Source: Candidatus Zambryskibacteria bacterium RIFCSPLOWO2_01_FULL_39_39
GTDB lineage: Bacteria > Patescibacteriota > Minisyncoccia > Phycocordibacterales > WO2-35-19
DNA length: 64,000 bases
Assembly: GCA_001823925.1 (NCBI GenBank)
Contig: MHWB01000013.1
Location: 9,338 to 73,337 of the forward strand
Direction: 5' to 3'
Below, piece after piece: positions 1 to 50,778 of the stretch. Below the pieces are notes generated by a model that made no database searches, was not told the origin of the DNA, and was given only the letters and a program-made list of their open reading frames with translations. Numbering within the stretch: position 1 is the first letter of the stretch; each line of letters opens with the position of its first letter. Made by a program: the position numbers and the translations under genes.

Positions 1-1277
1 TCACCTTCTTTAAGGATGCTATGCATAGGAGAAAGTTTGCCGTTTATTTTTACTCCCGACATTTTGTTGCCTATATCTGAATGGATCAGATAAGCAAAAT
101 CAATAGCCGAAGATCCGACCGGCAAATCAACCACATCCCCTTTGGGTGTAAAAACGAATATTCTCTCGCTTAAAAAATCTTTCTTTATTTCTGTTACTGA
201 ATGTGGAAGCATAGATTCTATCCACGGCGTCAGATGCTTTCTGTCGCCTCCTTTATAAAGAGCGTGAGCGGCCACCCCATACTCTGATTCATGATGCATT
301 TCTTCTGTTCGTATTTGTATTTCTACTAAATCTCCGTTTCCGGTAAATACAGTGGTGTGCAAACTTTGGTAGCCATTTTGTTTTGGGCGGGCAATATAAT
401 CTTTGATCCTGCCAGGCAAAGGTTTCCAAGAAGAGTGAATGATGCCAAGTGCTCGGTAGCAATCCTCGGTTTTTTCAACAGTCAATCTAATTGCCAAAAT
501 ATCGTATATTTTTTCAATATCCTTTTTATTTTTTAAATATTTTTTGTACAGACTGTATAGACCTTTGACCCTGTAGTCAGAACGAAAATTGACGAAACTG
601 GCCTTGGCCAACTCCTTCATAACTGATTTCATAAATTTCTCTAGATTTTCAAGTCTCTCGCTATAATTTTCCTTGAAGACGGAAGATATTTCAGCATATC
701 CATCTTTGTAGACAAAGGGAAATGCCAAATCTTCAAGCTCGCGAGAAAGTTTGCGGATACCAAGGCGATAAGCAATAGGAGCATAAATCTCCAATGTTTC
801 TCTGGCGATTCTTTCTTGTTTTTCTAATGGTAAGAAAGAAAGAGTGCGCATATTGTGAAGACGGTCACAAAGTTTTACCATGAGGACTCGGATATCTTTT
901 GAAGTTGCCAAGAGTAATTTGCGCAATGATTCGTTGTGACGATCGGCTCCGTGGTATTTTAAAGCGCCAAGTTTAGAAACACCCAAGACTATAAACAAAA
1001 CTTCTTTACCAAATTCTTTCTCAATCATTTCAGGTGGGGTCTCTGTATCTTCTAAAATGTCGTGCAAAAATCCAGCCACGATAGTTGTAGTATCCATCCC
1101 CAACTCGGCAATATTTTTGGCTGTTTCAAAAAGGTGATTAAAATACGGCTCGCCACTCAGGCGTCTTTGTCCCTCATGCTTTACTCTGGCAAATTCATAT
1201 GCTTTTTTTATAAAATCCTTTTCCTCCTCGTCAGCTTTAATTAAGAGAGATATTAATTTTTCTAAGTCTTTTTCCAT
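1..1277 (-). CDS. relA: Bifunctional (p)ppGpp synthetase/hydrolase RelA/SpoT family, C-terminally truncated by window edge
   Basis: Minus-strand translation from ATG at 1277 (RBS GGAAGGAG) gives MEKDLEKLISLL...HD domain motif (HDILEDT), RelA/SpoT synthetase region (LHTTVF...EIQIRT) and TGS-like region. Runs off window start so absent from ORF track. Confidence 0.8.
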   Translation of the reverse strand, partial: MEKDLEKLISLLIKADEEEKDFIKKAYEFARVKHEGQRRLSGEPYFNHLFETAKNIAELGMDTTTIVAGFLHDILEDTETPPEMIEKEFGKEVLFIVLGVSKLGALKYHGADRHNESLRKLLLATSKDIRVLMVKLCDRLHNMRTLSFLPLEKQERIARETLEIYAPIAYRLGIRKLSRELEDLAFPFVYKDGYAEISSVFKENYSERLENLEKFMKSVMKELAKASFVNFRSDYRVKGLYSLYKKYLKNKKDIEKIYDILAIRLTVEKTEDCYRALGIIHSSWKPLPGRIKDYIARPKQNGYQSLHTTVFTGNGDLVEIQIRTEEMHHESEYGVAAHALYKGGDRKHLTPWIESMLPHSVTEIKKDFLSERIFVFTPKGDVVDLPVGSSAIDFAYLIHSDIGNKMSGVKINGKLSPMHSILKEG

Positions 1278-3580
1278 CTCCTTCCTATTTTTTTAGGCTC
1301 TTTTAATATTTCGAGAGCGCGTTCTAGAGTTATTTTATATACATCGTCTGTTTTGAGAGAACGAAAATCTTTTTGGTGGACGATATATGGTCCAAACCTG
1401 CCAATATTGGCAGAGATCATTTCTCCTGTTTCTGGCTGTGGCCCAAGCTCTCTTGGTAAACTCAAATATTTGAGTGCTTCATCCAAAGTAACACTATTTG
1501 GATCTTTATCTTTGGGGATACTTGATCTCCTTGGTTTTTCTTTCTTTTCTTTTTTAGTTTTTTCTTTTGGATTTGGTGCTTCGGATTTTGAATTTTGTCC
1601 CCCCAACTGTACATAAGGCCCAAACCTACCGTCCATTATAAAAACCGGAAGCCCTGTTGCACTGTCAACTCCAATAGGTTCTGCTTCCTTTATTTCAGAA
1701 CCGTCAATATTTCGCATACCCTTGCAATCTGGAAATTTTTCGCAACTCAAAAATTTGCCTCCCTTACCGAGCTTGATTATCATACCTGCGCCACAGATGG
1801 GGCATTTAAGTTTGGGATCGGCGTCTCCTAGGTTAGTGAGTTTGGCCGTCTTTTCCTTTTCTTTTACATCTTTCAAAAATGGTTTATAAAATTCTCGCAG
1901 AGTTGGTTCGTACTCTCTTTTACCTTCTGCAATTTGGTCAAGTTCATCTTCCATTTCGGCAGTGAAGGTGTCGCTTATATAATTTTCAAAATTATTTTCT
2001 AAAAATGTTGAGACGACATCGCCGGTGTCTGTCGGTTTAAGTGTCCGACCATCTTTATCTACATAACCTCTATCTATGATGGTACCGATGATAGAAGCAT
2101 AGGTGCTAGGTCTGCCAATACCCCTTTTTTCCAATTCTTTGATGAGCCCAGCTTCGCTATATCTGTTTGGTGGTTCGGTCTGTTTTTCTTCTTGTTTTAA
2201 ATCTAATAAGGAAAGATTATCTCCTTGTTTAACTTTTGGCAACAAGGTATCCTCACTCTTTGCTTCTGGGTCAGCCATGAGCCAGCCACTTTTTATAACT
2301 CGGGAGCCATTGGCTGCAAAATCTGGGACGGTGGCAATGTCAAAGACGGGCTTTTTGGAAATTTCTTCAAAGCCCGTCTTTGACATTGCGGACACCTGCG
2401 CCGTTATCTTGGTACGCATCATCAAGGCATCTTGCATTTGGGAGGCGACAGCTCTCTGCCATATCAGTTGGTACAACTTCTTTTGATCATCATTTGCGCC
2501 AGCATTCTCTTTTTCAAAATGAGTGGGCCTTATCGCTTCGTGAGCCTCCTGGGCATTTTTGGATTTAGTTTTATAAGTGCGAATTTGGTGAAGTTCTGCT
2601 CCAAATTTTTTTGTTACCACACTTTTTATTTGCCCCAATGCTACAGTCGCCATATTTAAACTATCAGTACGCATATAGGTGATGTGTCCAGCTTCATAAA
2701 GTTTTTGAGCCACCATCATCGTCCGCTTAGGACTAAACCCTAGTCTAGTACTTGCTACTTGTTGTAAAGTAGAGGTGGTAAAAGGGGCTTTGGGCGCTCT
2801 CTTTACTTCGGTCTCGGTCACATCTTTGACAGACCAAACTCCTTCTTTGGCTACATTATAAATTTTATCCGCCTCAATTTTTGTTTTTGGTTCTTCCTCG
2901 CAAAAAGCAGTGAAGGTAGCAATGTCAAGGGCGGGCTTTGAAGAAATTTCCAAAAAGCCCGCCCTTGACATTGCACCCACTTTCAAATTTGCAGAAATAA
3001 CGAAAAATGTCTCTGGTTTGAAAGCTCGTATCTCTCGCTCTTTTTCCATTAGTATTCGCAAAGCTGGGGATTGAACTCGGCCAGCCGAAAGACCGTATCT
3101 GACTTTTTTCCAAATAAGTCCCGATAAGTCATATCCCACCAGTCTATCAAGCACCCTTCTGGCTTCTTGGGCCTTTCTCAAATTTTGATCAATACTTCTG
3201 GGGTGTTTGAGAGCTTCCTCGATCGCTTCCTTGGTAATTTCGTGATAAGTAACTCTGCTAATCTTTTTCTTGCTTCCAAAATCATCTTTAATTATTTCAG
3301 CCAAGTGCCAAGCGATAGCCTCACCTTCTCGGTCGGGGTCGGTCGCGAGCAAAACTTCATCTGCCTTTTTTACAAGAGCTTTTATCTCTGCGACCACCTT
3401 TTCTTTACCCTTTGAAATTTCATAGTGGGGGATAAAGCCACCTTCTATGTCGATGGCTTTTTTATTACTTTTTGGCAGATCACGAATATGGCCGACGCTA
3501 GCTACAACCTCGTATTCACTTCCTATATATTTGCCAATAGTTTTTGCTTTGGCAGGGGATTCTACAATTAATAATTTCAT
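1262..3580 (-). CDS. topA: DNA topoisomerase I
   Basis: 772 aa; N-terminal TOPRIM MKLLIVESPAKAKTIGKYIG, C-terminal Zn-ribbon CPICGAGMII...CEKFPDC; carries two in-frame palindromic insertions (see repeats). Confidence 0.9.
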   Translation of the reverse strand: MKLLIVESPAKAKTIGKYIGSEYEVVASVGHIRDLPKSNKKAIDIEGGFIPHYEISKGKEKVVAEIKALVKKADEVLLATDPDREGEAIAWHLAEIIKDDFGSKKKISRVTYHEITKEAIEEALKHPRSIDQNLRKAQEARRVLDRLVGYDLSGLIWKKVRYGLSAGRVQSPALRILMEKEREIRAFKPETFFVISANLKVGAMSRAGFLEISSKPALDIATFTAFCEEEPKTKIEADKIYNVAKEGVWSVKDVTETEVKRAPKAPFTTSTLQQVASTRLGFSPKRTMMVAQKLYEAGHITYMRTDSLNMATVALGQIKSVVTKKFGAELHQIRTYKTKSKNAQEAHEAIRPTHFEKENAGANDDQKKLYQLIWQRAVASQMQDALMMRTKITAQVSAMSKTGFEEISKKPVFDIATVPDFAANGSRVIKSGWLMADPEAKSEDTLLPKVKQGDNLSLLDLKQEEKQTEPPNRYSEAGLIKELEKRGIGRPSTYASIIGTIIDRGYVDKDGRTLKPTDTGDVVSTFLENNFENYISDTFTAEMEDELDQIAEGKREYEPTLREFYKPFLKDVKEKEKTAKLTNLGDADPKLKCPICGAGMIIKLGKGGKFLSCEKFPDCKGMRNIDGSEIKEAEPIGVDSATGLPVFIMDGRFGPYVQLGGQNSKSEAPNPKEKTKKEKKEKPRRSSIPKDKDPNSVTLDEALKYLSLPRELGPQPETGEMISANIGRFGPYIVHQKDFRSLKTDDVYKITLERALEILKEPKKIGRRWKKT
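2335..2388. repeat. 54-bp palindromic element (TGTCAAAG stem) inserted in frame in topA, encodes MSKTGFEEISKKPVFDIAT
   Basis: tgtcaaagacgggcttt / aaagcccgtctttgaca perfect 17-bp stems around loop ttggaaatttcttcaa. Confidence 0.7.
2920..2973. repeat. Second copy of same palindromic element in topA, opposite orientation, encodes MSRAGFLEISSKPALDIAT
   Basis: tgtcaagggcgggcttt / aaagcccgcccttgaca stems; loop is reverse complement of loop of copy at 2335. Confidence 0.7.
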
Positions 3581-3688: not shown

Positions 3689-3714
3689 CCCCTCTCCTAG
3701 ATGTAGGAGAGGGG
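3689..3714. repeat. GC-rich hairpin cccctctcct-agatgt-aggagagggg (possible bidirectional terminator between topA and flp-like gene)
   Basis: perfect 10-bp inverted repeat in AT-rich intergenic DNA; member of CCCTC..GAGGG hairpin family. Confidence 0.5.
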
Positions 3715-3807: not shown

Positions 3808-4251
3808 TTACATCCCATCGTTTCTGTCGTTCTCAGCCCGCTCCTTCCGGCGCAGGACGATCAAACTAAGGAAAAGTGCTGCCAGAATGGCGGCTCCTAC
3901 TCTCACGATAAGCGTAGGTATGTCTCGCAGAGACAAAATTTTACCCACAATCGGGGTAACTGTTTCTGCCACTGAGCCGAAGGTTACCACGACGGCGACG
4001 GCGACAAAGCCGGCCATCAATGCGTATTCAACCAGATCCTGACCGCGAGTGTCCGCGGACATCGACCTGAAAAAGTCGTTGGTTGACCGGCAGATCACGC
4101 GTCGCCGGTAGTAAATCAAGAGTCCCGCCACAAAAATCAGCGGGAACACAACAACAAACAAAAGACCCATACCCATAACGTAACGCCTCCTATCCACAAG
4201 TATAGCATAGTTGGCACTTCCTGTCAAGATGTCAAGGTTCGACCTTGACAT
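3808..4251 (-). CDS. Flp/Fap-family type IVb pilin-like protein (true start probably internal GTG near 4130)
   Basis: Motif RGQDLVEYALMAGFVAVAVVV matches Flp prepilin G/xxxxEY cleavage motif plus hydrophobic helix; lies in a ~450-bp segment of markedly higher GC than flanks. Confidence 0.45.
   Translation of the reverse strand: MSRSNLDILTGSANYAILVDRRRYVMGMGLLFVVVFPLIFVAGLLIYYRRRVICRSTNDFFRSMSADTRGQDLVEYALMAGFVAVAVVVTFGSVAETVTPIVGKILSLRDIPTLIVRVGAAILAALFLSLIVLRRKERAENDRNDGM
4229..4251. repeat. Short palindrome atgtcaagg-ttcga-ccttgacat flanked by tgtcaag direct repeats
   Basis: perfect 9-bp stems; same TGTCAAGG family as 11970. Confidence 0.6.
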
Positions 4252-4255
4252 TGTG

Positions 4256-5146
4256 TCAAGAAAGCCTTATTTCACCGAGAGTTTCTTTGATGAGGCACTT
4301 GAGTTCCAAAAGAGAGAGTAGAGTTTGGGTTTCGCCGACTGATATCTGGTGTTCCAGATTTGCCTGTCTCAAAATCTCATCGCGTGGCAATGGTTCTATC
4401 AAAAGTTTTATAATGAGCATTTCTTTTTCCGAACAATCAAAATATTTTTCCTCGTCACTCTGAGACTTTGCGGAAGCAGACTCATCATTTTCCAAATGCA
4501 ACGCTTCCAATAAGTCGTCACTGTCCCTTATTGGTGTGGCTCCAAGACGAATGAGCATATGAGGACCTTGGCTTGTGGTATTAAAAATACTGCCAGGTAG
4601 AGCTAAGACATCTCTATTATATTCGGTCGCTAATCGCGCAGTGATTAAAGTACCTGACTTTTTTTCTGCTTCTATCACCAATGTGGCATGGCTCATACCA
4701 GCCATAATCCTATTTCTTTGAGGGAAGCTCCATTGGGTTGCTTTGAATTCTGAATCAAATTCGTTTAAGAGTGTGCCGCCTTTTTCTACGATTTCCTCTG
4801 CCAGACGAGTATGTGACTGAGGGTGTAAGACATCTAATGAAAGTCCCGAGCCGGGCACGGCGATGGTGGGCAAGTTGTTTTTGAGGGCGGCTCTATGAGC
4901 GATAGAGTCAATGCCTAAAGCCAGACCGGAAACGATAGTAATGGGATAATTTTTCAAACCTTCTATAAAAGTTTCGACCGCCTCCTTTCCATAACTTGTG
5001 TTTTTGCGAGCGCCGACTATGCACAAAAGCTTCCTCTCCCAGTCTGGTATTTTGCCCACATAAAGCAGTTTTTTTGGTAGTTGATTGATTTCTTCCAAGA
5101 GTGGCGGCCAATCTTTTCTCTCTAATTTTTTGATTTCATATTTCAT
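4256..5146 (-). CDS. dprA: DNA processing protein DprA (Smf)
   Basis: 296 aa; Rossmann-like DprA core LCIVGARKNTSYGKEAVE...SGLALGIDSIAHRAAL... Confidence 0.85.
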   Translation of the reverse strand: MKYEIKKLERKDWPPLLEEINQLPKKLLYVGKIPDWERKLLCIVGARKNTSYGKEAVETFIEGLKNYPITIVSGLALGIDSIAHRAALKNNLPTIAVPGSGLSLDVLHPQSHTRLAEEIVEKGGTLLNEFDSEFKATQWSFPQRNRIMAGMSHATLVIEAEKKSGTLITARLATEYNRDVLALPGSIFNTTSQGPHMLIRLGATPIRDSDDLLEALHLENDESASAKSQSDEEKYFDCSEKEMLIIKLLIEPLPRDEILRQANLEHQISVGETQTLLSLLELKCLIKETLGEIRLS

Positions 5147-6474: not shown

Positions 6475-6495
6475 CACCCTCGCGCTACGCGTCGA

Positions 6496-6516
6496 CCCCT
6501 CTTATATTAAGAGGGG
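6496..6516. repeat. GC hairpin cccctctta-tat-taagagggg after serS (possible left end of DUF559 element)
   Basis: perfect 9-bp inverted repeat; near-identical hairpin at 7252. Confidence 0.5.
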
Positions 6517-6539
6517 TAAAAACAAAAATAATAAAAAAT

Positions 6540-6880: not shown

Positions 6881-7267
6881 ATGAACTCTAAATTTCTTTA
6901 TAATAATAAAGTTTTGAGAGATCGCAGACAAGAGTTAAGAAATGGTGCGACTGAATCGGAAAAAATTCTTTGGAATAATTTGAAACACAGTAAACTCGGA
7001 GGTTTTAAATTTGTAAGACAGTATAGTGTTGGCCCTTATATTCTGGATTTTTATTGTCCAAAATTGCGATTGGCAATAGAATTAGATGGAAGCCAACATA
7101 GCGAGCGAGATGCAATTTTGTATGATAAAGATAGGAATGATTATTTGGACGCTGTGTATATAAAAGTTTTGAGATTTTGGAATATGGAGATAACAAAAAA
7201 TATAAAAGGGTCGATTGATAAAATTTTACAAGAAATACTTAAAGTAGCAGACCCCCTCTTAAAATAA
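6881..7267 (+). CDS. DUF559 (Vsr-like restriction-endonuclease fold) domain protein
   Basis: 128 aa; ILWNNL...FKFVRQYSVGPYILDFYCPKLRLAIELDGSQH...RNDYLD..YIKVLRFWN.EI matches DUF559 pattern; same domain is embedded inside tgt at 49915-50160. Confidence 0.75.
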   Translation: MNSKFLYNNKVLRDRRQELRNGATESEKILWNNLKHSKLGGFKFVRQYSVGPYILDFYCPKLRLAIELDGSQHSERDAILYDKDRNDYLDAVYIKVLRFWNMEITKNIKGSIDKILQEILKVADPLLK

Positions 7268-7274
7268 GAGGGGG
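7252..7274. repeat. GC hairpin ccccctctta-aaa-taagaggggg at 3' end of DUF559 gene
   Basis: perfect 10-bp inverted repeat followed by cagggggtg. Confidence 0.5.
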
Positions 7275-11287: not shown

Positions 11288-12355
11288 ATGAATTTTTGGA
11301 ATGAAATGAAAAAGCCGATACTTTGTCTCGCGCCATTAGCAGATGTTACTGATGTGGCTTTTAGGCATATTATTGCTAAATATTCGAAAGAAATGTCAAA
11401 GGGCGCCTTCGAAATGCCCCGGTCCCAGAAGGCGCCCTTTGACATTTCTACCTACGTTACTTATACCGAATTTGTTTCGGCCGATGGACTTGTTTTGGCT
11501 CCGGAAACAGGTAGGAGAAGACTCTTAAAAGATTTGGAATATTCTGAAATAGAAAGGCCGATCGTGGCACAACTTTTTAGCAGTAATCCAGAGAATATGA
11601 AAAAAGTTGCTTCTCTTGTTATGGAATTAGGTTTTGATGGTGTAGATATAAATATGGGTTGTCCCGATAAAAGTGTAGAGAAGCAGGGAGCTGGTGCCGC
11701 CCTTATAAAGAACCCAAAGCTTGCAAGAGAAATAATAAGATATGCAAAGACAGGTATAAAAGAAGCAGCAGAGAGGCTGGGTAAAGAAGAAATACCGCTG
11801 TCAGTAAAAACCAGACTTGGTTATAACGATGATGAGTTAGAAAGTTGGTTGCCAGAATTATTGGCGGAAAATCCGGCAGCTATTATTATCCATGCTCGCA
11901 CAAGGAAAGAAATGTCTAAAGTCCCTGCTCGTTGGGAGCGTATCAGACGTGCCGTTGAGATAAGGGATGAAGTGTCAAGGTTCAACCTTGACACTCAAAA
12001 AACTTTAATAATTGGTAATGGAGATGTTTTAGATGTTGCAGATGCAATAAAAAAATGTGAAGAGAGTGGCGCAGACGGGGCCATGCTCGGGAGAGCAGTT
12101 TTTGGCAATCCTTGGCTCTTTTCTACCCACGTGCCGACCGCTTCCGAAAAATTAAAAGTCTTGCTGGAACATATTAAACTTTTTGAAGAAAAATTGGGTG
12201 GGGTAAAAAATTTTGCTGTTATGAAAAAACATTTCAAAGCTTACCTTTCTGGTTTTCCTGTTGGTAGTGATTTTAGACTAAAAGAATTAAGAGATAGGCT
12301 CATGCAAACAAAGGACGCTAAAGATGCGGAGATTTTGTTAAGCGAATACTTATAA
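11288..12355 (+). CDS. dusB: tRNA-dihydrouridine synthase (DusB-like) carrying two in-frame palindromic insertions
   Basis: 355 aa; LAPLADVTDVAFRHI...YTEFVSADGL...DINMGCPDK...IHARTR...GNGDV motifs of Dus family. Confidence 0.8.
   Translation: MNFWNEMKKPILCLAPLADVTDVAFRHIIAKYSKEMSKGAFEMPRSQKAPFDISTYVTYTEFVSADGLVLAPETGRRRLLKDLEYSEIERPIVAQLFSSNPENMKKVASLVMELGFDGVDINMGCPDKSVEKQGAGAALIKNPKLAREIIRYAKTGIKEAAERLGKEEIPLSVKTRLGYNDDELESWLPELLAENPAAIIIHARTRKEMSKVPARWERIRRAVEIRDEVSRFNLDTQKTLIIGNGDVLDVADAIKKCEESGADGAMLGRAVFGNPWLFSTHVPTASEKLKVLLEHIKLFEEKLGGVKNFAVMKKHFKAYLSGFPVGSDFRLKELRDRLMQTKDAKDAEILLSEYL
11391..11447. repeat. 57-bp palindromic element in dusB (20-bp perfect stems aaatgtcaaagggcgccttc, loop gaaatgccccggtccca), encodes MSKGAFEMPRSQKAPFDIS
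   Basis: insertion sits where Dus family has short KYG-to-TEMVSA linker; loop shared with elements at 21781 and 25994. Confidence 0.7.
11970..11994. repeat. Short palindrome agtgtcaagg-ttcaa-ccttgacact inside dusB (encodes VSRFNLDT)
   Basis: perfect 10-bp stems; family member of 4229 copy. Confidence 0.6.
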
Positions 12356-18716: not shown

Positions 18717-19628
18717 TTATTTATTGCCCCGTAAAAAATCTTCGTAAAGCATTTCTTTTTTACCTTCTGGTATTATTTTTAATATTTTTAATTTATCATC
18801 TTCAATTGTGGCATCTGTTATTATAATGCGTTTTTCTTTATTAAAATAATAAGAAGTGGGCCACTCTTCAAAGGCTTTTATTTTAAGCAAATTTTTAAGT
18901 GGATTGTCACTTAAATCAAGAAAGCCATCTTCTTTTTTTATTTTTTGGCAATAAGTTGCTTTATCTTCATTTTGTATTATTGGATCTATTGCTCCCAAGA
19001 GCCATTCTGGTAAAATATGAGCAAATAGTCCTGCTCCCTCTATTGCTAAAATTTTTTCTAATTCTTTTCTGCCGACCTCACCCCATGCCCCTTTGGTGCC
19101 TTGCTCCTCCCCTTGACAAGGGGAGGGGTTGGGGAGAGGTTTTTGAATTACAATAGGTCCTGTATCCATTGCTTCTTCAATCTGCATAATACTTACCCCC
19201 ACTTCCGTATCGTTATTTAAAATCTGACTCTGGATAGGAGAAGCGCCACGATATTTTGGCAACAGAGAAGGGTGGATATTTAAAGTTTTGTGTTTTGGTA
19301 TTTCAAAAATTTCTTTAGGAATTATTTTGCCGTAAGAAGCGACTAAAAAGAGATCCCAATCTCCAAATTTTACTTCGGTATTACGAAGAAATTCTTCTGC
19401 ATTAGAGCCCCGCTCACTTCTTAAGGTTTCTGGATCAAAAACTTCTATATTATTTTTTTGACCCCATACCCTTACTTCATTTGGAGTAAGTATCATCTTT
19501 CTGCCTTTTGGTCTGTCAGGAATTGTTATCAAAAGGTTTGGCAACATACCATGTTGTTTCAATTCGTCCAAAACATAAACAGAAAATCTTGAACTGCCAA
19601 AGAATGCCCAATGTACTTTGTTTATCAT
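18717..19628 (-). CDS. fmt: Methionyl-tRNA formyltransferase with Pro/Gly-rich insertion
   Basis: 303 aa; formyl-transferase N and C domains; insertion PLPNPSPCQGEEQGTKGAWGEVG coded by GC hairpin at 19104-19139. Confidence 0.85.
   Translation of the reverse strand: MINKVHWAFFGSSRFSVYVLDELKQHGMLPNLLITIPDRPKGRKMILTPNEVRVWGQKNNIEVFDPETLRSERGSNAEEFLRNTEVKFGDWDLFLVASYGKIIPKEIFEIPKHKTLNIHPSLLPKYRGASPIQSQILNNDTEVGVSIMQIEEAMDTGPIVIQKPLPNPSPCQGEEQGTKGAWGEVGRKELEKILAIEGAGLFAHILPEWLLGAIDPIIQNEDKATYCQKIKKEDGFLDLSDNPLKNLLKIKAFEEWPTSYYFNKEKRIIITDATIEDDKLKILKIIPEGKKEMLYEDFLRGNK
19104..19139. repeat. GC hairpin ctcctcccctt-gaca-aggggagggg + ttggggagagg inside fmt
   Basis: inverted repeat of CCCTCCCC/GGGGAGGG family. 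Confidence 0.55.
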
Positions 19629-20229: not shown

Positions 20230-22224
20230 CTATAACAAATTATCTGGATCTGTCTTAATCTCAAAGTGGGGAGGTAAAGATTTTAAAATAGAAAAAAGAG
20301 CAGAATCTACCCATTTTTCTTTGGGTATTTTAATGACGGCATTTATGGCAGATTGCTCACCCCTTTTTTCATGAATGGATGGGAAAATGGTGGCGCTATA
20401 ATTTTTATTTTCGGAATTTTCAAACACATTCTTCAACACTTGAGTTTCTTTTCCGACAAAACTTTTAGTGCCTCTCACTGTTATTTTTATAAAAATACTA
20501 AAAGGTGGGTAACTTAAAACCGCGCGATCCTCTATTTCCTTTTTATAAAATTCTATTAAATTGCCACTTCTTGCAAATTCTACAGTTGAATCTTTTGGGT
20601 TTCTGGTCTGTATCAAAAGGTTTTCTTTGGCTATACTTTTGGTTTGTAAAATAAGACGGAAAATTTTTTCTCTGATACGAAAATCAGGAATAGAGAATAG
20701 GGAATCAAAAGAACAAATAGCACTACTTCCCACTTTTTTATAAATATAAGAGAGAGCCATCTCGGTACCCAAAAGTATTGAGCCTTTATTTTCATAAAAG
20801 TTTTTGATTACATTTAAGGCTTTGGCGTTTGTTTCAACAATATCTTTGTGTAATTCAAAAAGATTTATGTTTGGGACACTCTTTCTTAATTCTTCGGCTA
20901 CTCTGTCAATACCAGAACCAAATGCCGCAAGCTTCCAGCTGTGACAATTTTGACAAACTTCTGCCGCGTCTCGTGTTTCGCCACATTGATGACATTTAAA
21001 AACGGCGCCATTTTGGGTACTTTGGTCCGGAGATGTTTTAGTTTTATATAAGATCATAGGAGATGAGCAGTTGAAACATTTTACCTGTTCTCCGCAGTCA
21101 CGGCAGACAGTAACCGACGATAAGCCTTTTCTAGCCGCAAATATAAACATATTAGAACCTTTTTCTATGGTTTTTTTGATTAAATTTAGTAATTCTGGCG
21201 ATATGGTTTTGAATTCTTTTCCTTGCCCCAATTCTTTCAAGTCTATTATGGTCGTTTTGATTTCAAGAGGCATTCGCCATTTGACGTTTTCAAATTCAGA
21301 TACTTCCCCTTGTTTGTATCTGTATAAAGTTTCTATTCTCAAAAAAGAATCTCCAATCACGGTACGGATATTTTTTTTATTAGCCAAAATTTCAGCAAAA
21401 AATCGAAGGTCTATAAAAGGTCGCGATAAAGTTTTCCAACCAGTTTCATTTTCTTTATCTATAATAATGGTGCCGAAATCTAATCTTGGCAAAAATAACC
21501 ATTTGGCTGTGGCTATAATTAATACAGGATGCTTTGTTTCGCATGCCCTTTTCCATTCCTTGATTAAATCCTTTTTCTTCATTTCATTATGAAAAGTGCA
21601 GACAAAGGATTCTATACCACGTTCTAGTTTTTCCTGAGTTTTTCGCACGTTTTCATTTTGAGGTAAGCATAGAAAAACTGATTTTTTCTTAGCAAATTCT
21701 TCCCTGATAAGAGATTTATAAAGATCTAATCTTTCCTCGTTTGGAGCTTGTAAGATAGCAATTTCATTTTTAATACTGTCGTTGCCAAGGACAGTCCTTA
21801 AACTGCCCCGGTCCCAAAGGACTGTCCTTGGCAACTGAAGCAAGTTTGGGTTTTCTAAAATGAAAGAAGGAATAAGTTGGGGAATAATATTGCCTTCTGT
21901 GGCGACAAAATATTTGGCCGTCTCTCTCACCGCTTCCAAGAATTTTTTTTGTAAAAATGGTTTAGCAGTTACGGCTGAAATTTTTTTTAATTGAAAATTT
22001 GCGGATTTTATAGAAAGTTTTGCCTCTGTCACGTCCTTACTTTCTAAAACCAAAGCTGAAACACTTTTTCCTCTAATGTTTATTTTTAACAAAGAACCGG
22101 GCTCTAAATATTTAGGTCCAAAATATGACAGTGACTCTTTACTCAAACCTTTTGAAAGTGGTAGACATTCTATGATAAACATATGCTTTAAGTAAAAAGC
22201 AAAAAGCCTAAAGTAGCAAGTCAT
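20230..22224 (-). CDS. priA: Primosomal protein N' (PriA helicase) with in-frame palindromic insertion
   Basis: 664 aa; helicase core plus Cys4-Cys4 zinc module CRDCGEQVKCFNC...CHQCGE...CQNCHS. Confidence 0.85.
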   Translation of the reverse strand: MTCYFRLFAFYLKHMFIIECLPLSKGLSKESLSYFGPKYLEPGSLLKINIRGKSVSALVLESKDVTEAKLSIKSANFQLKKISAVTAKPFLQKKFLEAVRETAKYFVATEGNIIPQLIPSFILENPNLLQLPRTVLWDRGSLRTVLGNDSIKNEIAILQAPNEERLDLYKSLIREEFAKKKSVFLCLPQNENVRKTQEKLERGIESFVCTFHNEMKKKDLIKEWKRACETKHPVLIIATAKWLFLPRLDFGTIIIDKENETGWKTLSRPFIDLRFFAEILANKKNIRTVIGDSFLRIETLYRYKQGEVSEFENVKWRMPLEIKTTIIDLKELGQGKEFKTISPELLNLIKKTIEKGSNMFIFAARKGLSSVTVCRDCGEQVKCFNCSSPMILYKTKTSPDQSTQNGAVFKCHQCGETRDAAEVCQNCHSWKLAAFGSGIDRVAEELRKSVPNINLFELHKDIVETNAKALNVIKNFYENKGSILLGTEMALSYIYKKVGSSAICSFDSLFSIPDFRIREKIFRLILQTKSIAKENLLIQTRNPKDSTVEFARSGNLIEFYKKEIEDRAVLSYPPFSIFIKITVRGTKSFVGKETQVLKNVFENSENKNYSATIFPSIHEKRGEQSAINAVIKIPKEKWVDSALFSILKSLPPHFEIKTDPDNLL
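21781..21835. repeat. 55-bp palindromic element in priA (stems ttgccaaggacagtcctt, loop aaactgccccggtccca) encoding LPRTVLWDRGSLRTVLGN
   Basis: near-identical to intergenic copy 25994-26048. Confidence 0.75.
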
Positions 22225-22257: not shown

Positions 22258-23028
22258 ATGAATTTATCTTTTGATAAAAAACTAGCAGATAATTATACAA
22301 GTCAATCTCAAAAAATCAGAGTTTTAACTGAAGATTGGGTTGATAATCAAATTTTTTGCCCAAATTGTGGACATCTTAATATAGATAAATATGAAAATAA
22401 TAAACCAGTCGCCGATTTCTTCTGTTCAAATTGTAAGGAAGATTATGAATTAAAAAGTAAAAAAGAAACAATTGGCAATAAACTTGTTGATGGTGCATAC
22501 CACACGATGATTGAAAGATTGCAAAGTAGTAATAACCCTAATTTTTTTCTTCTTAATTATGATTTACAAAATTTTGAGGTTTTAAATTTTTTTGTCATTC
22601 CAAAACATTTCTTTATTCCAGATATTATAGAAGAACGCAAAGCATTATCCCAAACAGCAAGGCGTGCTGGTTGGATTGGTTGTAATATTTTACTACAGAG
22701 CATTCCGCAAAGCGGAAAAATATTTTTTGTAAAAAATCGTCAAATTGAGTCAAAAGAAAAAATTCTCGCAAAATGGCAAAAAACGCTATTTCTCCGAAAA
22801 GAAAAAGAAATTAGTGCAAAAGGTTGGCTTTTAGATATAATTAATTGTATTGAAAAATTAAAAAATAAAGAATTTACCATTGATGAAATTTATGTTTTTG
22901 AAAGTTTTTTATCCAAAAAACATCCTGAAAACAAATATATCAAAGACAAAATTCGTCAACAACTACAGATTTTGAGGGATAGGGGGTATTTATATTTTAT
23001 TAGCAGAGGAATTTATAAAATAAAATGA
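22258..23028 (+). CDS. DpnI-like Type IIM (methyl-directed, G-m6A-TC) restriction endonuclease / Dam-replacing protein family
   Basis: 256 aa; segments SQSQKIRVLTEDWV, CPNCGH, KPVADFFCSNC, ELKSKK, DGAYHTM, NNPNFFLL, RRAGWIGCNI, KIRQQLQILRDRGY match my recollection of DpnI/DRP family. Confidence 0.6.
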   Translation: MNLSFDKKLADNYTSQSQKIRVLTEDWVDNQIFCPNCGHLNIDKYENNKPVADFFCSNCKEDYELKSKKETIGNKLVDGAYHTMIERLQSSNNPNFFLLNYDLQNFEVLNFFVIPKHFFIPDIIEERKALSQTARRAGWIGCNILLQSIPQSGKIFFVKNRQIESKEKILAKWQKTLFLRKEKEISAKGWLLDIINCIEKLKNKEFTIDEIYVFESFLSKKHPENKYIKDKIRQQLQILRDRGYLYFISRGIYKIK

Positions 23029-25991: not shown

Positions 25992-25993
25992 TA

Positions 25994-26048
25994 GTTGCCA
26001 AGGACAGTCCTTAAAATGCCCCGGTCCCAAAGGACTGTCCTTGGCAAC
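25994..26048. repeat. Intergenic copy of 55-bp palindromic element (holB-frr spacer)
   Basis: ttgccaaggacagtccttaaaatgccccggtcccaaaggactgtccttggcaa; 1 nt different from priA copy. Confidence 0.75.
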
Positions 26049-26052
26049 TTAA

Positions 26053-42336: not shown

Positions 42337-42408
42337 TGACGCTACGGGGGATCGGACCCCGATTCCAGCCTTGAGAAGGCTGTGTCCTAACCATTAGACG
42401 ATAGCGCC
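42337..42408 (-). tRNA. tRNA-Glu (anticodon CTC), no encoded CCA
   Basis: minus-strand GGCGCTATCGTCTAATGGTTAGGACACAGCCTTCTCAAGGCTGGAATCGGGGTCCGATCCCCCGTAGCGTCA; D arm GTCTA..GGTTAGGACA is Glu-like; anticodon loop TTCTCAA. Confidence 0.85.
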
Positions 42409-42892: not shown

Positions 42893-42923
42893 TGAAAAGA
42901 TGGGATAAAACTTTGAAGGTGAC

Positions 42924-42977
42924 CTTTTGGAGCAGGGGACAGTTTAAAGGTCACCTTCTCAAAAAAATTTGCTATAA
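42924..42977 (+). promoter_or_regulatory. 13-bp inverted repeat gaaggtgaccttt/aaaggtcaccttc followed by TATAAT (-10), upstream of T4CP-like gene
   Basis: perfect IR with 18-nt loop at 42924-42967, -10 hexamer at 42972-42977, ATG at 42987. Confidence 0.35.
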
Positions 42978-42986
42978 TAAACGGGT

Positions 42987-45743
42987 ATGGAATATAAATT
43001 CCCATTGCCAAAAGAACCTTTTAAAAATAGAGAAGATGAGATCTCTCATTTACGCAAATTGATTGCCGAAAAAGAAAAGAATTTAGAAAACATTGGTTTA
43101 AAAAAAGATTTTTTAACACCAGCCAAAGAGGCTATCACAGAATACAAGACGGCTCCCACCACTTCAGCGCTCCATCCTGAATATGAAATAAAAAAAGAAG
43201 AAATAGACAAAATCGTACTCAAACTTTCTCCCGAAGAGCACGACAAACAAATAAATGAACTGGTAAATTTGGCCAAAGAAAAGGGCATCAAAAACGCTCT
43301 CTCGGTAGTAGAAAAAATGGGTAATTTCCATATTACCGATGATTTCCATCGTTTTATTGCTGAGTATTTGAAAGAAGGTGCTACTCTCCCCGGTATAAAT
43401 ATTAAAGAGAAAATTTCCAAAGGTTTAAATATGTCTCTTTATGAAATTTTAATACCGGAAGAAAATGATAAGAGCGGTGTTAAAAATACTTTAGAAGAAG
43501 TGATCTCCGGAATGGAGCAATTTTATGCTGGCATGCTCTCTATCTCGGACAGCAGTAAGCAAGAGGAAAATTGGATATCTTTAGAGATAGCTAACGCCAA
43601 TTTTTCTCAAGAAATAATTTTTTATGTGGCGGTACCGTCTTTGCGCAAAAGTCTTTTTGAAAAACAAATTCTCTCTATTTTTCACAATGCTAAAATCACC
43701 GAAAAACCAGATGACTACAATATTTTCAATGAAAAAGGTGTGACTTCTGGCGCTTTTGCCTCTTTTTCCAAAAACCCAATTTACCCTATCAAAACTTATG
43801 AAAGCTTTATCCACGATCCGCTCAATGTGATACTTTCTGGTTTTTCAAAAGTAAACAGAGATGGGGAAGGGGCGGCTATCCAACTCATTTGGTCACCCTC
43901 GGGAGACAAATATGTCAAAAAATATAAAAGCGCTTTAGGTAAACACCAAAAGGGCACACCACTCAAAGAGGCCATCGATATCCCCGATGGTGTTTCGGAA
44001 GAAATTTTACACACCTTTAAAGATGTATTCTTCTCGTCTTCAAAGTCTGGAAAGAAAGATGATTTAGATAAAAAAAGAGAAGGCATCGATGAAGGTGCTG
44101 TAGCCGAAATAAACAAAAAAATAACAGCGCCAATCGTTAGGTGCAACTTGCGCCTTCTTACATCTTCAAATACTAAAGAGGAAGCCGAAGAAATCTTAAA
44201 CAGCTTAAAATCGAGTTTCAATCAGTTTGATAATACTTTGGGCAATGCTTTTGAATGGAAAAAGGCAGAAAAGGGTGATTTGCGAAACTTAGTCAAAAAT
44301 TTTAGTTTTCGTATTTTTGATGACTCTTCTGCTTTGCCGATGAACTTGCGAGAAGTGACTTCAATCATGCATTTCCACACCAAAGCTTTGAGCGCTTCCG
44401 AGGGCCTGCGCCAATCTAGATCGGCTACTGCTCCGGCGCCACTCGATATTGGCAAGGAGGGGATACTGCTTGGTGTAAACAACCACCGTAATGAGAAGAC
44501 AGAGATAAAAATAACTGCTGATGATAGGCTGAGGCACTTCTATTGTATCGGACAGACTGGTACTGGTAAGACGACTCTGCTTAAAGAGATGATTATTCAA
44601 GATATGCAAATGGGTCACGGTGTTTGTATGATCGACCCTCACGGCTCTGACCTGCAATCTGTTTTGGCCAATGTGCCACCCGAGCGTTTCGAAGATGTCA
44701 TCTATTTTGATCCGGCATATACCGCGAGGCCCTCGGCTTTAAATATGCTTGAATATGATGAAAATTTCCCAGAGCAAAAAACTTTTGTGGTCAATGAGCT
44801 TTTTAGTATTTTTAGAAAATTATATGGCAATGTCCCAGAATCAATGGGTCCAGCTTTTGAACAATATTTTAGAAACTCGGCGCTTTTGGTGATGGACGAT
44901 CCAAGTTCAGGTAATACTCTAGTTGATATGTCGCGGGTGCTGTCAAACAAAGCTTACAGAGACCTCAAAATATCTAAATGTAAAAATCCTCTGGTGAAGC
45001 AGTTTTGGGTCAATGCCGAAAAGACGACCGGCGAGCAAGGTTTGTCCAACTATGTACAGTATGTTACCAACAAATTTGATGTCTTTTTGGCAAACGATAT
45101 TATGCGACCAGTTATTGCTCAAGAAAAATCTTCTTTTAATTTCCGCGATATTATGGACAATAAAAAAATACTTCTGGTCAATCTTTCTAAAGGCAGGCTG
45201 GGGGATATCAATGCAAATTTAATAGGACTTATTTTGGTGGGTAAGATACTCATTGCCGCCCTTTCTAGGGTGGATAGTTTTGGCAAAGATTTTCCGCCTT
45301 TCTATCTATATATAGATGAGTTTCAAAATATTACTACCGACTCCATCTCCACCATTTTATCTGAAGCCAGAAAATATAAACTTTCTTTAAACATTGCTCA
45401 CCAATTTATTGCTCAATTGGAAAAGGGTATTAGCGATGCCGTCTTTGGCAACGTCGGCTCCATATGCGCCTTCAGAGTAGGAGCCGAAGATTCTGAGACT
45501 TTGGAGAGTCAATTTGTACCCACTTTCTCTAGTAACGACCTAATGAATATAGACAATTATAATGCTTACTTGAGACTTCTGGTAAATGGCAAACCGGCCA
45601 AACCCTTCAATATAGAAGTGCCACCACCACCCTCGGGGGACATAAATCAGGTAGAAAAACTTAAAGAAATGTCATATCTCAAATACGGCAAACCTCGCGA
45701 AGAGATAGAGAAGCTCGTAATGGAAAAATATAAAATAGCCTAA
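42987..45743 (+). CDS. Soluble TraD/VirD4/TrwB-like P-loop NTPase with ~500-aa non-ATPase N-terminal region
   Basis: 918 aa; Walker A IGQTGTGKTT followed by MIDPHGSDL, Walker B YLYIDEFQN, C-terminal KYKLSLNIAHQF...FRVGAEDSETL like coupling-protein all-alpha/TraM-recognition region; no TM helices. Confidence 0.5.
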   Translation: MEYKFPLPKEPFKNREDEISHLRKLIAEKEKNLENIGLKKDFLTPAKEAITEYKTAPTTSALHPEYEIKKEEIDKIVLKLSPEEHDKQINELVNLAKEKGIKNALSVVEKMGNFHITDDFHRFIAEYLKEGATLPGINIKEKISKGLNMSLYEILIPEENDKSGVKNTLEEVISGMEQFYAGMLSISDSSKQEENWISLEIANANFSQEIIFYVAVPSLRKSLFEKQILSIFHNAKITEKPDDYNIFNEKGVTSGAFASFSKNPIYPIKTYESFIHDPLNVILSGFSKVNRDGEGAAIQLIWSPSGDKYVKKYKSALGKHQKGTPLKEAIDIPDGVSEEILHTFKDVFFSSSKSGKKDDLDKKREGIDEGAVAEINKKITAPIVRCNLRLLTSSNTKEEAEEILNSLKSSFNQFDNTLGNAFEWKKAEKGDLRNLVKNFSFRIFDDSSALPMNLREVTSIMHFHTKALSASEGLRQSRSATAPAPLDIGKEGILLGVNNHRNEKTEIKITADDRLRHFYCIGQTGTGKTTLLKEMIIQDMQMGHGVCMIDPHGSDLQSVLANVPPERFEDVIYFDPAYTARPSALNMLEYDENFPEQKTFVVNELFSIFRKLYGNVPESMGPAFEQYFRNSALLVMDDPSSGNTLVDMSRVLSNKAYRDLKISKCKNPLVKQFWVNAEKTTGEQGLSNYVQYVTNKFDVFLANDIMRPVIAQEKSSFNFRDIMDNKKILLVNLSKGRLGDINANLIGLILVGKILIAALSRVDSFGKDFPPFYLYIDEFQNITTDSISTILSEARKYKLSLNIAHQFIAQLEKGISDAVFGNVGSICAFRVGAEDSETLESQFVPTFSSNDLMNIDNYNAYLRLLVNGKPAKPFNIEVPPPPSGDINQVEKLKEMSYLKYGKPREEIEKLVMEKYKIA

Positions 45744-49155: not shown

Positions 49156-50778
49156 ATGTTTAAAATAGAGCAAAAAATCTCGAAGTCACTGGGTCGAGCT
49201 GGTGTTTTAATTACTCCACATGGGGAGGTACAAACACCTAGCTTTGTAGCTGTCGGTACTAAAGCAACGGTCAAATCTCTCTCACCCGAACAGGTCAAAG
49301 AGGCTGGGTCGCAAATAGTTTTGGCCAATACCTATCATCTTTATTTAGAACCCGGAGAAAAAATTGTGAAAGAAGCGGGGGGCTTGGGTAAGTTTATGAA
49401 TTGGCAAGGTCCAACTATGACAGACTCGGGCGGTTTTCAAGCTTTTTCTTTGGGGGTGGCTTATGGAAGTAAGCTTAGTAAATTTATTGGCAATGAGTCT
49501 CCAAAACAAGAAGAGATAGACGAAGCTTATAGAGAAGAGCGAGATAAGAAAGCAAAGATTACCGAAGATGGGGTGGAATTTAAATCTATTATAGATGGTA
49601 GCAAACATTTTTTTACTCCAGAAAAATCAATGCAAATTCAAAGTGACCTAGGAGCTGATATTATTTTTGCTTTTGATGAGTGTACTTCACCACATGCACC
49701 CAAGGAGTATTTGAAGGAAGCTTTGGCGCGGACTCATCGTTGGGCAGAAAGGTGTTTGATTGAATACAGAAAAAATCACCCCACCCCGACCCTCCCCGAA
49801 GGGGAGGGTGCCCAAAGGGGAACTTTCGGTTATCACACAACAGATTCGGTTACTTGGAAAAATCTTCAACAAAGAGTTTTAGAAATGAGAGAAAAACCTA
49901 CTCCCGCTGAAAATATGCTATGGCAACATTTAAGAAAAAATTCAACAAAATATCATTTTAGAAGACAACATATAGTGGGAAATTTTATTGTTGATTTTGT
50001 TTGCCTAGAAAAATCATTAGTAATTGAAGTTGATGGAGATATCCATGATTACCAAAAGGAAGAAGATAAATCCAGAACAGAGTTTTTAAATAAATTAGGT
50101 TTTTATATTTTAAGATTTAAGAACGAAGAGGTAGTAGAGAATATTTTAAAAGTATTAGAGGGTATAAAGGTTGGTCTTAAAGCCCTCCCCTTTGGGGAGG
50201 GTTTGGGTGGGGTTTCTTCCCAAGCTCTCTTTGGCATAGTCCAAGGTGGCAGGTATGAAGATTTGAGGAAAGAAAGCGCTAAGGTGATAGGAGAGATGGA
50301 TTTTGATGGTTTTGGCATTGGAGGCTCCTTTGTTAAAGAAGATATGGCGACAGCGGTCAAATGGGTGAGTGGAATTTTGCCAACTGATAAACCTAGGCAT
50401 CTTTTGGGGGTGGGAGAGCCTGTTGACATTATTTTTGGTGTTGAAAACGGATGCGACACATTTGACTGTGTCGCCGCGACACGTATGGCGCGCAATGGCA
50501 CACTCTATACCAAACGAGGTAAAATAAATATCAACAACGCCAAGTATAAAAATATTTTTGAGCCGATTGAAGAGGGGTGCAAGTGTTATACTTGTAAAAA
50601 TTATACCTGTTGCTACCTTTCCCACCTTTTTCGCTCCAAAGAAATGTTGGCCGCTACTTTAGCATCTATTCATAATCTTTATTTTATAAATTCTCTGGTT
50701 GCAGAGATGAGAGAATCAATTTTAAACGAAAATTTTTTTGATTTTAAAGAAAATTTTTTAAGAGATTATAAAGTTTAG
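49156..50778 (+). CDS. tgt: Queuine tRNA-ribosyltransferase carrying an in-frame ~145-aa insertion that contains a DUF559 endonuclease domain
   Basis: 540 aa; TGT N-terminal (LITPHGEVQTPSFVAVGT, LANTYHL, TDSGGFQ), then insertion between ERCLIEYRKN and QALFGIVQGG, then zinc site CKCYTCKNYTCCYLSH. Confidence 0.8.
   Translation: MFKIEQKISKSLGRAGVLITPHGEVQTPSFVAVGTKATVKSLSPEQVKEAGSQIVLANTYHLYLEPGEKIVKEAGGLGKFMNWQGPTMTDSGGFQAFSLGVAYGSKLSKFIGNESPKQEEIDEAYREERDKKAKITEDGVEFKSIIDGSKHFFTPEKSMQIQSDLGADIIFAFDECTSPHAPKEYLKEALARTHRWAERCLIEYRKNHPTPTLPEGEGAQRGTFGYHTTDSVTWKNLQQRVLEMREKPTPAENMLWQHLRKNSTKYHFRRQHIVGNFIVDFVCLEKSLVIEVDGDIHDYQKEEDKSRTEFLNKLGFYILRFKNEEVVENILKVLEGIKVGLKALPFGEGLGGVSSQALFGIVQGGRYEDLRKESAKVIGEMDFDGFGIGGSFVKEDMATAVKWVSGILPTDKPRHLLGVGEPVDIIFGVENGCDTFDCVAATRMARNGTLYTKRGKININNAKYKNIFEPIEEGCKCYTCKNYTCCYLSHLFRSKEMLAATLASIHNLYFINSLVAEMRESILNENFFDFKENFLRDYKV
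49777..50212 (+). mobile_element. DUF559-encoding insertion element with ~35-bp GC-rich hairpin terminal inverted repeats, integrated in frame within tgt
   Basis: left end accccaccccgaccctccccgaaggggaggg is approx reverse complement of right end ccctcccctttggggagggtttgggtggggt; internal 49915-50160 encodes MLWQHLRKNSTKYHFRRQHIVGNFIVDFVCLEKSLVIEVDGDIH...LRFKNEEV (DUF559). Confidence 0.55.

Follow-up and report, generated by a model that had tools for sequence, protein, structure and literature searches.

In-frame 'selfish' palindromes in essential genes have so far been a textbook curiosity of Rickettsia and Wolbachia, namely the palindromic elements of Rickettsia (RPE-1 to RPE-10; Ogata et al. 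2000, 2002) and, in Wolbachia, palindromic repeats that code for protein (Ogata et al. 2005), both outlined in PMC2229807 and PMC10969869; the former gives a length of 105–146 bp for Rickettsia palindromic elements (RPEs). Among short hairpin repeats, the closest described systems comprise REP (repetitive extragenic palindromic) and REPIN elements with their REP-associated tyrosine transposases (RAYTs) (Bertels and Rainey 2011; PMC3116915, PMC3337134 and PMC5581495). A further relevant process is template switching, which, according to PMC8604942, PMC8794818 and PMC13100816, homogenises the arms of inverted repeats, inverts their spacers and expands the repeats themselves. Here, we describe two perfect palindromes that lie in frame in the topoisomerase I gene topA within a stretch of 64,000 nt of contig MHWB01000013.1 (64 kb, hereafter the window, to which all coordinates without a locus name refer), together with the dispersed family to which they belong. 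The host organism is a member of the Patescibacteria (Zambryskibacteria or Parcubacteria GW2011_GWA1_47_10 in the source records). In the full-text literature, with many subscription journals outside the coverage, we found no prior description of such elements in Patescibacteria (Candidate Phyla Radiation, CPR). The host gene and its two element copies are:

1262–3580, minus strand: topA, a 772-aa open reading frame (ORF) with Pfam Toprim, Topoisom_bac, Zn ribbon and C-terminal repeats
2919–2974, minus strand: element copy at TopA site S1, aa 203–221 (AMSRAGFLEISSKPALDIAT), 21-bp perfect stem, 14-nt loop, coding strand TTGGAAATTTCTTC
2334–2389, minus strand: element copy at TopA site S2, aa 398–416 (AMSKTGFEEISKKPVFDIAT), 21-bp perfect stem, flipped 14-nt loop, coding strand GAAGAAATTTCCAA

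The behaviour of these elements is that of RPEs, and their mechanism seems closest to that of REPIN-like hairpin repeats shaped by template switching. Like RPEs, they form long predicted stem-loops (here 21-bp perfect stems, z about −9.5); as in Rickettsia and Wolbachia, intergenic copies occur alongside in-frame copies in unrelated conserved housekeeping genes of a small, gene-dense genome, a single frame is used and the inserts are tolerated. The comparison with RPEs made in a preliminary description of this DNA therefore stands as far as in-frame palindromes in protein genes are concerned, but does not extend to membership, as the elements are two to three times smaller and perfectly palindromic: whereas RPEs measure 105–146 bp and have imperfect stems, those described here measure 48–63 bp (with 21-nt stubs) and are 100% Watson-Crick paired. 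This separation is one of size and stem pairing. The host phylum differs as well, and with a patescibacterial host, common descent with RPEs is unlikely. Four further features seen here are absent from the summaries of RPEs available to us, namely the recurrent use of two particular loops across orthologs, loops in flip and flop orientation, sizes in multiples of three that also hold for intergenic copies, and a built-in slippage repeat.

The topA palindromes and their family

The identity of topA follows from matches to TopA entries of the PDB, which reach down to E=8.5e-141. Two 54-bp palindromes had been placed at 2335–2388 and 2920–2973; both exist, and each is in fact 56 nt long, with one base more per side. 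Their stems, GCAATGTCAA[A/G]G[A/G]CGGGCTTT, contain the TGTCAA(A/G)G..CYTTGACA arms reported at the outset and are fully symmetrical, with 21 of 21 perfect pairs in each copy; they differ at two positions, each of which is compensated on both arms. The copy at 2334–2389 is identical to the reverse complement of the other at 52 of 56 positions (93%), compared with 46 of 56 in direct alignment. The loops of the two copies are therefore mutual reverse complements, and the opposite orientations that had been claimed are correct. Also as described before, both copies keep the frame of the 772-aa ORF and encode closely similar peptides, with 14 of 20 residues identical between AMSRAGFLEISSKPALDIAT and AMSKTGFEEISKKPVFDIAT (predicted peptides within the 56-nt segments include TGFEEISK and KPVFDIATVPDFAANGSR), and the mirrored peptide is present in the plus-strand shadow ORF 2103–2486. 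The 20-mer arm has four matches in the window against 0.01 expected, and the RNA folds of the two palindromes reach −42.5 and −48.9 kcal/mol (z about −9.5). Separate assemblies from NCBI and ENA contain the topA DNA at 100% identity, and an identical TopA is encoded by 23 contigs, so that the palindromes cannot be attributed to an assembly artefact. The window is contained in GCA_001825295.1 and GCA_001003005.1. No strain polymorphism was seen among the retrieved contigs of the window's own species, which are 100% identical over 13.6 kb.

Beyond topA, the palindromes belong to a dispersed element family in Zambryskibacteria/Paceibacteria-type Patescibacteria. Its consensus consists of one to six variable bases, TG[T/C]CAA[A/G]G, six or seven further variable bases and TT[T/C], followed by a 14- or 17-nt loop and the mirror arm. 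We refer to the members, which start with variable bases and then TGTCAARG or TGCCAARG, as TGTCAAAG elements. Long forms measure 48–63 bp overall and stubs 21–25 bp, and the window holds six long copies plus stubs. Outside the coding region of topA, the following were located:

11389–11449, plus strand: long member in dus, in frame, aa 34–54 (KEMSKGAFEMPRSQKAPFDIS), 22-bp perfect stem, 17-nt loop GAAATGCCCCGGTCCCA
11971–11995, plus strand: stub in dus, in frame, aa 228–236, TGTCAAGGTTCAACCTTGACA core, 21 nt
21781–21835, minus strand: long member in a PriA-like gene, in frame (QLPRTVLWDRGSLRTVLGN), TTGCCAAGG-type stem, flipped 17-nt loop
25993–26049, no strand: intergenic long member between a DNA polymerase III delta'-like gene and frr
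42915–42958, no strand: related member in intergenic DNA, with stem GAAGGTGACCTTT and an 18-nt loop akin to the 17-nt class
4218–4262, no strand: composite short palindrome upstream of topA, containing TGTCAAGGTTCGACCTTGACA

The expectation that copies would be found elsewhere was thus borne out both in the window (dus, priA, intergenic) and in relatives, which carry members in dus, miaA and an aminotransferase gene, the latter in Nomurabacteria with the same TGTCAAAGACGGGC arm. Pfam confirms topA (with three sites), dus (with at least three), priA, miaA and the class-V aminotransferase gene as hosts. The dus site occupied at 11389–11449 is empty in the related locus L083 and filled differently in L002, L014 and L086, and the dus site that holds the stub at 11971–11995 carries a full-length element in L084. 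Upstream of topA, orthologous 21-nt palindromes are present in L084, L085 and L086. In the window, the region of the composite palindrome (4199–4262) supplies TTGACA as the −35 hexamer of a TG-extended promoter-like site (11 of 12 matches) on the minus strand, directed toward topA; a 147-aa ORF overlapping it (3808–4251) is without a Pfam match and possibly no genuine gene. A further 29-nt stub, AAAGTGTCAAAGGCGCCCTTTGACACTTT, lies just left of the window in miaA of the same species (L090 15638–15666, equivalent to L092 12753–12781), at about aa 261; the miaA stub of L002 is at about aa 246.

The related DNA comprised about 1.2 Mb of topA loci from metagenomes and assemblies. Long perfect hairpins far exceed chance in it: stems of at least 14 bp formed 64 hairpins in 1.1 Mb against none in shuffles, and those of at least 13 bp about 100 against one. 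Elements with quite different stems have the 17-nt loop (A/G)AAATGCCCCGGTCCCA in common. This loop occurs in intact elements only, with no decayed copies (loop without stem) found; isolated copies of the terminal 8-mer stay at chance level outside palindromes, and a dispersal like that of uptake signals was not seen. A 40-column profile of the concatenated insert peptides gave no match at E≤10 in a database of 5.8 billion proteins.

Insertion sites, reading phase and turnover

We aligned 120 TopA orthologs of 67–100% identity. The loop is at or near its short modal length in 68 of them at S1, in 67 at S2 and in 43 at both sites, and is filled in 52 and 53, respectively. In L083 (P0010), a close ortholog at about 81% identity, the DNA lacks a palindrome at both sites, S1 is empty in the DNA of L002 and L003, and TopA of E. 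coli aligns with a gap at S2. In an AlphaFold model of TopA (mean predicted local distance difference test, pLDDT, 75.8), the S1 insert falls between strands 191–201 and 222–227 and the S2 insert between strands 385–397 and 421–430, both with pLDDT <50, so that the model places both inserts at low-confidence beta-hairpin tips. Going by the domain boundaries of E. coli Topo I, both tips presumably belong to domain D2. Short loops in most orthologs, combined with the predicted position at hairpin tips, identify the TopA inserts as lineage-specific insertions. This agrees with what had been anticipated for an ortholog alignment, given 68 and 67 short loops among 120 and palindrome-free DNA in L083, and for a structure, in which surface loops were expected and both inserts are modelled between paired beta-strands.

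All 16 coding copies, which represent at least seven independent sites, are read in the same phase (xTG-TCA-AAG … TTT-GAC-Axx), and the distance from TG to CA is exactly 21, 48 or 51 nt, all multiples of three, intergenic copies included. All 26 element-orientation combinations leave the phase in use (phase 1) open, while phase 2 is stopped in 23 of 26; phase 0 is open in 21 of 26, yet never used. As removal at the RNA level would impose no frame rule, we argue that the inserts are probably translated. Use of one frame within genes matches reports on RPEs (PMC10969869, PMC2229807). The peptides vary with the orientation and the stem variant of the element, and there is hence no conservation of the inserts at the protein level.

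Turnover is fast. Mapping presence and absence on the tree of TopA orthologs requires at least 34 gain or loss steps at S1 and at least 24 at S2, and orthologous sites in different genomes carry different element variants. Within a genome, by comparison, copies can be nearly identical. The priA copy and the intergenic copy at 25993–26049 lie 4.2 kb apart in unrelated contexts and have identical 19–20-bp stems, their loops differing by 1 nt and in orientation. The stems at S1 and S2 are identical in L082, and the genome-specific core GGCAT/ATGCC of L002 recurs in its long dus copy as well as in two stubs, in dus and miaA. Among the TopA orthologs, an S1 element of the SK..FD family is accompanied by one of the same family at S2 in 7 of 10 cases, where about one would be expected. 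Because near-identical copies occupy unrelated sites of one genome, sequence must have been copied between sites, by transposition or ectopic conversion. In distant CPR genomes, the same TopA loops hold unrelated perfect palindromes (L012, L033, L047, L048 and L052 at S2; L078 at S1). Many orthologs have a solo GTGTCAAAG ('VSK') upstream of S2, and L082 and L084 have a tandem GTGTCAAAG-GTGTCAAAG; these solo and tandem remnants suggest that new copies land beside old ones.

Origin of the elements and competing explanations

Across 13 aligned elements, 221 of 221 stem cells are Watson-Crick paired. Nine of the 17 stem pairs vary, all by two-sided change, with zero one-sided changes and zero G-T pairs; the lack of wobble pairs favours templating at the DNA level over selection on an RNA fold. 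Loops are found in both orientations on matching stems (S1 versus S2 in the window and in L082, and L047 versus L052). Arm homogenisation and spacer inversion, both published signatures of template switching, are therefore present in these data, which offer a natural record of template switching maintaining perfect palindromes. The stem runs one to six variable, complementary bases outward beyond TGTCAAAG, and L088 and L084 share their inner stem and loop, with outer bases that are different but compensated.

The stubs point to a specific route of decay. In Hainich groundwater, one species has two alleles (L088 and L089) whose differences over 6.5 kb are one single-nucleotide polymorphism and one 27-nt indel at S2, the latter turning the 48-nt form into the 21-nt stub. 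The segment concerned is bounded by an 8-nt direct repeat, GACTTTGA. This slippage repeat is built into the element, since the stem end CTTT and the loop start GA together match the terminal CTTTGA. In L002, too, the stubs correspond to the long form of that genome without the stretch that separates the AAAG or CTTT repeats. A long form of the same core and loop is present in L084, which makes the long form the probable ancestor of the stub. These long and short alleles constitute a tractable population-level polymorphism for measuring rates in the environment.

Taken together, we regard it as probable that the topA palindromes belong to an RPE/REPIN-like hairpin family that copies between sites and is tolerated in permissive in-frame loops. 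The members are very short hairpin DNA elements of presumably non-coding origin, 48 or 51 nt from TG to CA, with a variable inner stem and a semi-conserved loop, whose sequence is copied between sites by transposition or ectopic conversion. The inserts would be translated as disordered surface loops and, as passengers that are neutral or mildly harmful, would persist at permissive sites only, in a genome that is ~88% coding. Template switching between the arms at replication would make the arms perfect, flip the loops and extend the stem outward to a variable degree; slippage between the built-in direct repeats (CTTTGA… or AAAG…) would leave the in-frame 21-nt stub; and old stubs may attract new copies, which would produce recurrent hotspots.

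Several points weigh against this reading. Among the ORFs of the 64 kb window, none was recognised as encoding a transposase or as otherwise mobilising. At the topA sites, native loop residues have apparently been replaced, not merely interrupted, which leaves the exact boundaries of the insertions undefinable. That the inserts are translated is deduced solely from the conserved frame. The elements compared for covariation are kin to one another, in some cases orthologs, and the counts obtained are therefore not independent events. The enrichment of hotspots in topA and dus is partly a matter of ascertainment, because the related-DNA sample was centred on topA. Lastly, the exact topA stem pattern, present in two copies in the window, was met at one related locus among 185,579 species-representative genomes, a scan that amounts to no genome-wide count because the stems vary too much; the genome-wide copy number of the exact topA variant may be low.

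A more far-reaching version, which we put forward only tentatively, is that these are coding-adapted hairpin replicators, that is, a REPIN-like family living mainly in the ORFs of an ultra-compact genome. Translatability in both orientations, multiple-of-three sizes, clean in-frame self-deletion, arms regenerated by templating with no imperfect intermediates, stubs that serve as landing pads and perhaps a domesticated RAYT-like Y1 motor beside topA would then all be adaptations to that habitat. If so, the D2 hairpin tips of TopA and several Dus loops would be perpetual nurseries of new peptide sequence across Patescibacteria.

Somewhat more doubtful is a specific mechanism for the copying step, in which REP/REPIN-type elements are moved in trans by a RAYT-like Y1 (HUH) transposase acting on hairpins in single-stranded DNA at the replication fork. 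The notion draws on a Y1_Tnp gene (PF01797, E=8e-11) of 229–231 aa that fills a position conserved between topA and relA in L085, L002, L088 and L089. The Y1 genes of close relatives are:

L085, 12816–13505: Y1 gene
L002, 12310–12960: Y1 gene
L003, 6298–6930: Y1 gene
L088, 3468–4163: Y1 gene
L089, 3671–4366: Y1 gene

The best NCBIfam match of the gene is the REP-associated tyrosine transposase (REP_Tyr_transpos), but its score of 55 bits stays below the 80-bit equivalog cut-off for RAYTs. It is apparently syntenic, present once per locus and flanked by hairpins, as PMC5581495 reports for RAYTs. In all five loci, however, the flanking hairpin is the gene's own, TACAATGGCYGTCATTGTA (TACAATGG…CCATTGTA, 7-bp stem), and no TGTCAAAG element flanks it. 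With a different hairpin at its borders, the link that defines a REP-RAYT pair is missing. Nor was a Y1 homolog found in the 64 kb window, including the slot between topA and relA, and L084, L082 and L087 contain elements with no Y1 within their visible flanks.

The elements themselves give a similarly divided picture. As short hairpin repeats that persist in a lineage, they resemble REP/REPIN elements, and a hairpin form, a conserved stem-base motif plus loop and the lack of target-site duplication are what one would expect of a structure-specific enzyme acting on single-stranded DNA. In one distant CPR genome (L034, 50% GC), palindromes of a related CAAGG type are confined to intergenic DNA, as classical REPs are; no transposase stands beside them, only housekeeping genes. 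On the other hand, most copies in the clade described here sit in frame inside genes, the palindromes are perfect and the GTAG/CGTC tag that marks the main REP super-families (PMC3733652) is missing. Members of REP/REPIN systems are extragenic and number tens to hundreds per genome; the 64 kb window holds six long copies plus stubs. We therefore treat the RAYT-like Y1 gene near topA in relatives as a candidate mobilising enzyme only.

It is improbable, in our view, that no mobile element is involved and that the palindromes grew in situ at mutation-tolerant loops by template switching, with their similarity due to local conversion. The signatures of such growth are there (perfect arms, inverted loops and what looks like growth of the stem into its flanks), as are the unrelated palindromes that distant CPR lineages hold at the same TopA loops (listed above for S1 and S2). 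Template-switch (quasipalindrome) mutagenesis, which also affects coding DNA, accounts for multi-base compensatory changes made in a single step, perfect arms, spacer inversion and growth of inverted repeats (PMC8604942, PMC8794818, PMC7202029). Yet this is a process of mutation and constitutes no element family; on its own, it leaves the same sequence of ~50 nt at unlinked loci unexplained. The same 17-nt loop and terminal motif recur at dus, priA, intergenic and topA positions and across genomes, the priA and intergenic stems agree over 19–20 bp at a distance of 4.2 kb, and the TGTCAAAGACGGGC arm reappears in the aminotransferase gene of Nomurabacteria. Independent origin in situ cannot yield such shared 50-nt sequences.

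A selected function for the hairpins is unlikely as well, whether as a structure in the mRNA (a site for RNase III or a pause in translation), as a protein-binding palindromic operator or part of a promoter, or as a useful loop of the protein. The mRNA hairpins would be very stable (−36 to −49 kcal/mol) and could have side effects, the loop is better conserved than the stem, and the short palindrome upstream of topA gives TTGACA to a near-consensus promoter-like site. Against this, the inserts are absent from many close orthologs and turn over very fast, the peptides differ with orientation and stem variant, the complete lack of G-T/G-U pairs points to templating of DNA, and the terminal 8-mer is not over-represented outside palindromes. 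A terminator or promoter role of the topA hairpins was considered and rejected, as neither was flagged, and an Rfam scan of the window returned two tRNAs only, with no family at the palindromes.

Still less likely, the elements could be MITEs (miniature transposable elements with inverted repeats) derived from a DDE transposase. Inverted-repeat symmetry spans each element as a whole, the termini are conserved, MITEs lying in frame inside genes have been described (PMC10969869), and families such as ERIC/RU-1, Correia and BOX are small repeats with open frames and occasional in-frame fusions (PMC2759123, PMC2229807). MITEs, however, have terminal inverted repeats and target-site duplications (often TA), and their intragenic copies are exceptional, whereas such copies are the rule in the clade studied here. 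At 48–63 bp, the elements also fall far short of the usual MITE size of about 100–200 bp (PMC2229807), and the window contains no insertion sequence with matching ends and no DDE transposase. Inspection of the S1 and S2 junctions in the window, L082, L084, L085 and L087 revealed no direct repeats; this absence of target-site duplication speaks against a MITE of the DDE type and would fit HUH enzymes or conversion. Finally, an assembly or scaffolding artefact, suggested by nothing beyond the metagenomic origin of the sequence, is practically negligible, given identical copies in 23 contigs of independent assemblies, the same architecture in many independently assembled relatives and the preserved frame.

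A smaller and mechanistically cleaner element in Patescibacteria suggests that in-frame palindromes of this kind recur in tiny, gene-dense genomes with scarce intergenic refuge. They are also a source of fast variation in loop length and sequence in conserved CPR proteins, which affects alignments, phylogenomic markers, structure prediction and length-based annotation.

Other palindromes and neighbouring genes

A second, unrelated palindrome family has the form CCCTCYCCT-N3-5-AGGRGAGGG and encodes 'PSP…GEG' peptides. Its copies are:

3689–3714: second-family palindrome
19106–19126: second-family palindrome
51218–51240: second-family palindrome
51270–51292: second-family palindrome
four hairpins bracketing DUF559 (coordinates below)
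L086, 1905–1930: second-family palindrome

This family comprises intergenic copies and in-frame copies in fmt, tgt and truB, the truB pair lying inside an extra segment of ~100 aa, and it is also found in Dus of L086 and at TopA S1 of other species (P0045, P0055, P0094, P0097 and P0103). The ORF for Tgt (queuine tRNA-ribosyltransferase; 49156–50778) contains a complete DUF559 (Vsr-like endonuclease) domain in frame at aa 236–339, bracketed by GC-rich palindromes at 49789–49809 and ~50183–50203 (peptides TLPEGEG and ALPFGEG). With palindromes on both sides, the arrangement resembles a hairpin-flanked nuclease cassette fused into an essential gene. A free-standing DUF559 ORF (6881–7267) and a 108-aa ORF are bracketed by hairpins of the second-family type (6495–6517 and 7252–7274), and are syntenic in L084 and L090–L093. 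The two DUF559 copies are only 36% identical, and we rejected the idea that they are recent duplicates.

A different 30-nt palindrome, TATTCTCTAATTCG..CGAATTAGAGAATA (peptide LFSNSxELEN), occupies one position of Dus in L014 (3797–3826), L063 (5232–5261) and L085 (1722–1751); its stem is identical in the three lineages, unlike the elements with fast turnover. In the window, a gene for a DpnI-like endonuclease (methyl-directed, Dam-replacing family; 22258–23028) adjoins priA, and a 918-aa ORF (42987–45743) with weak matches to coupling ATPases of the TraG/TrwB/HerA type lies just downstream of the palindrome at 42915–42958 and a tRNA at 42337–42408.

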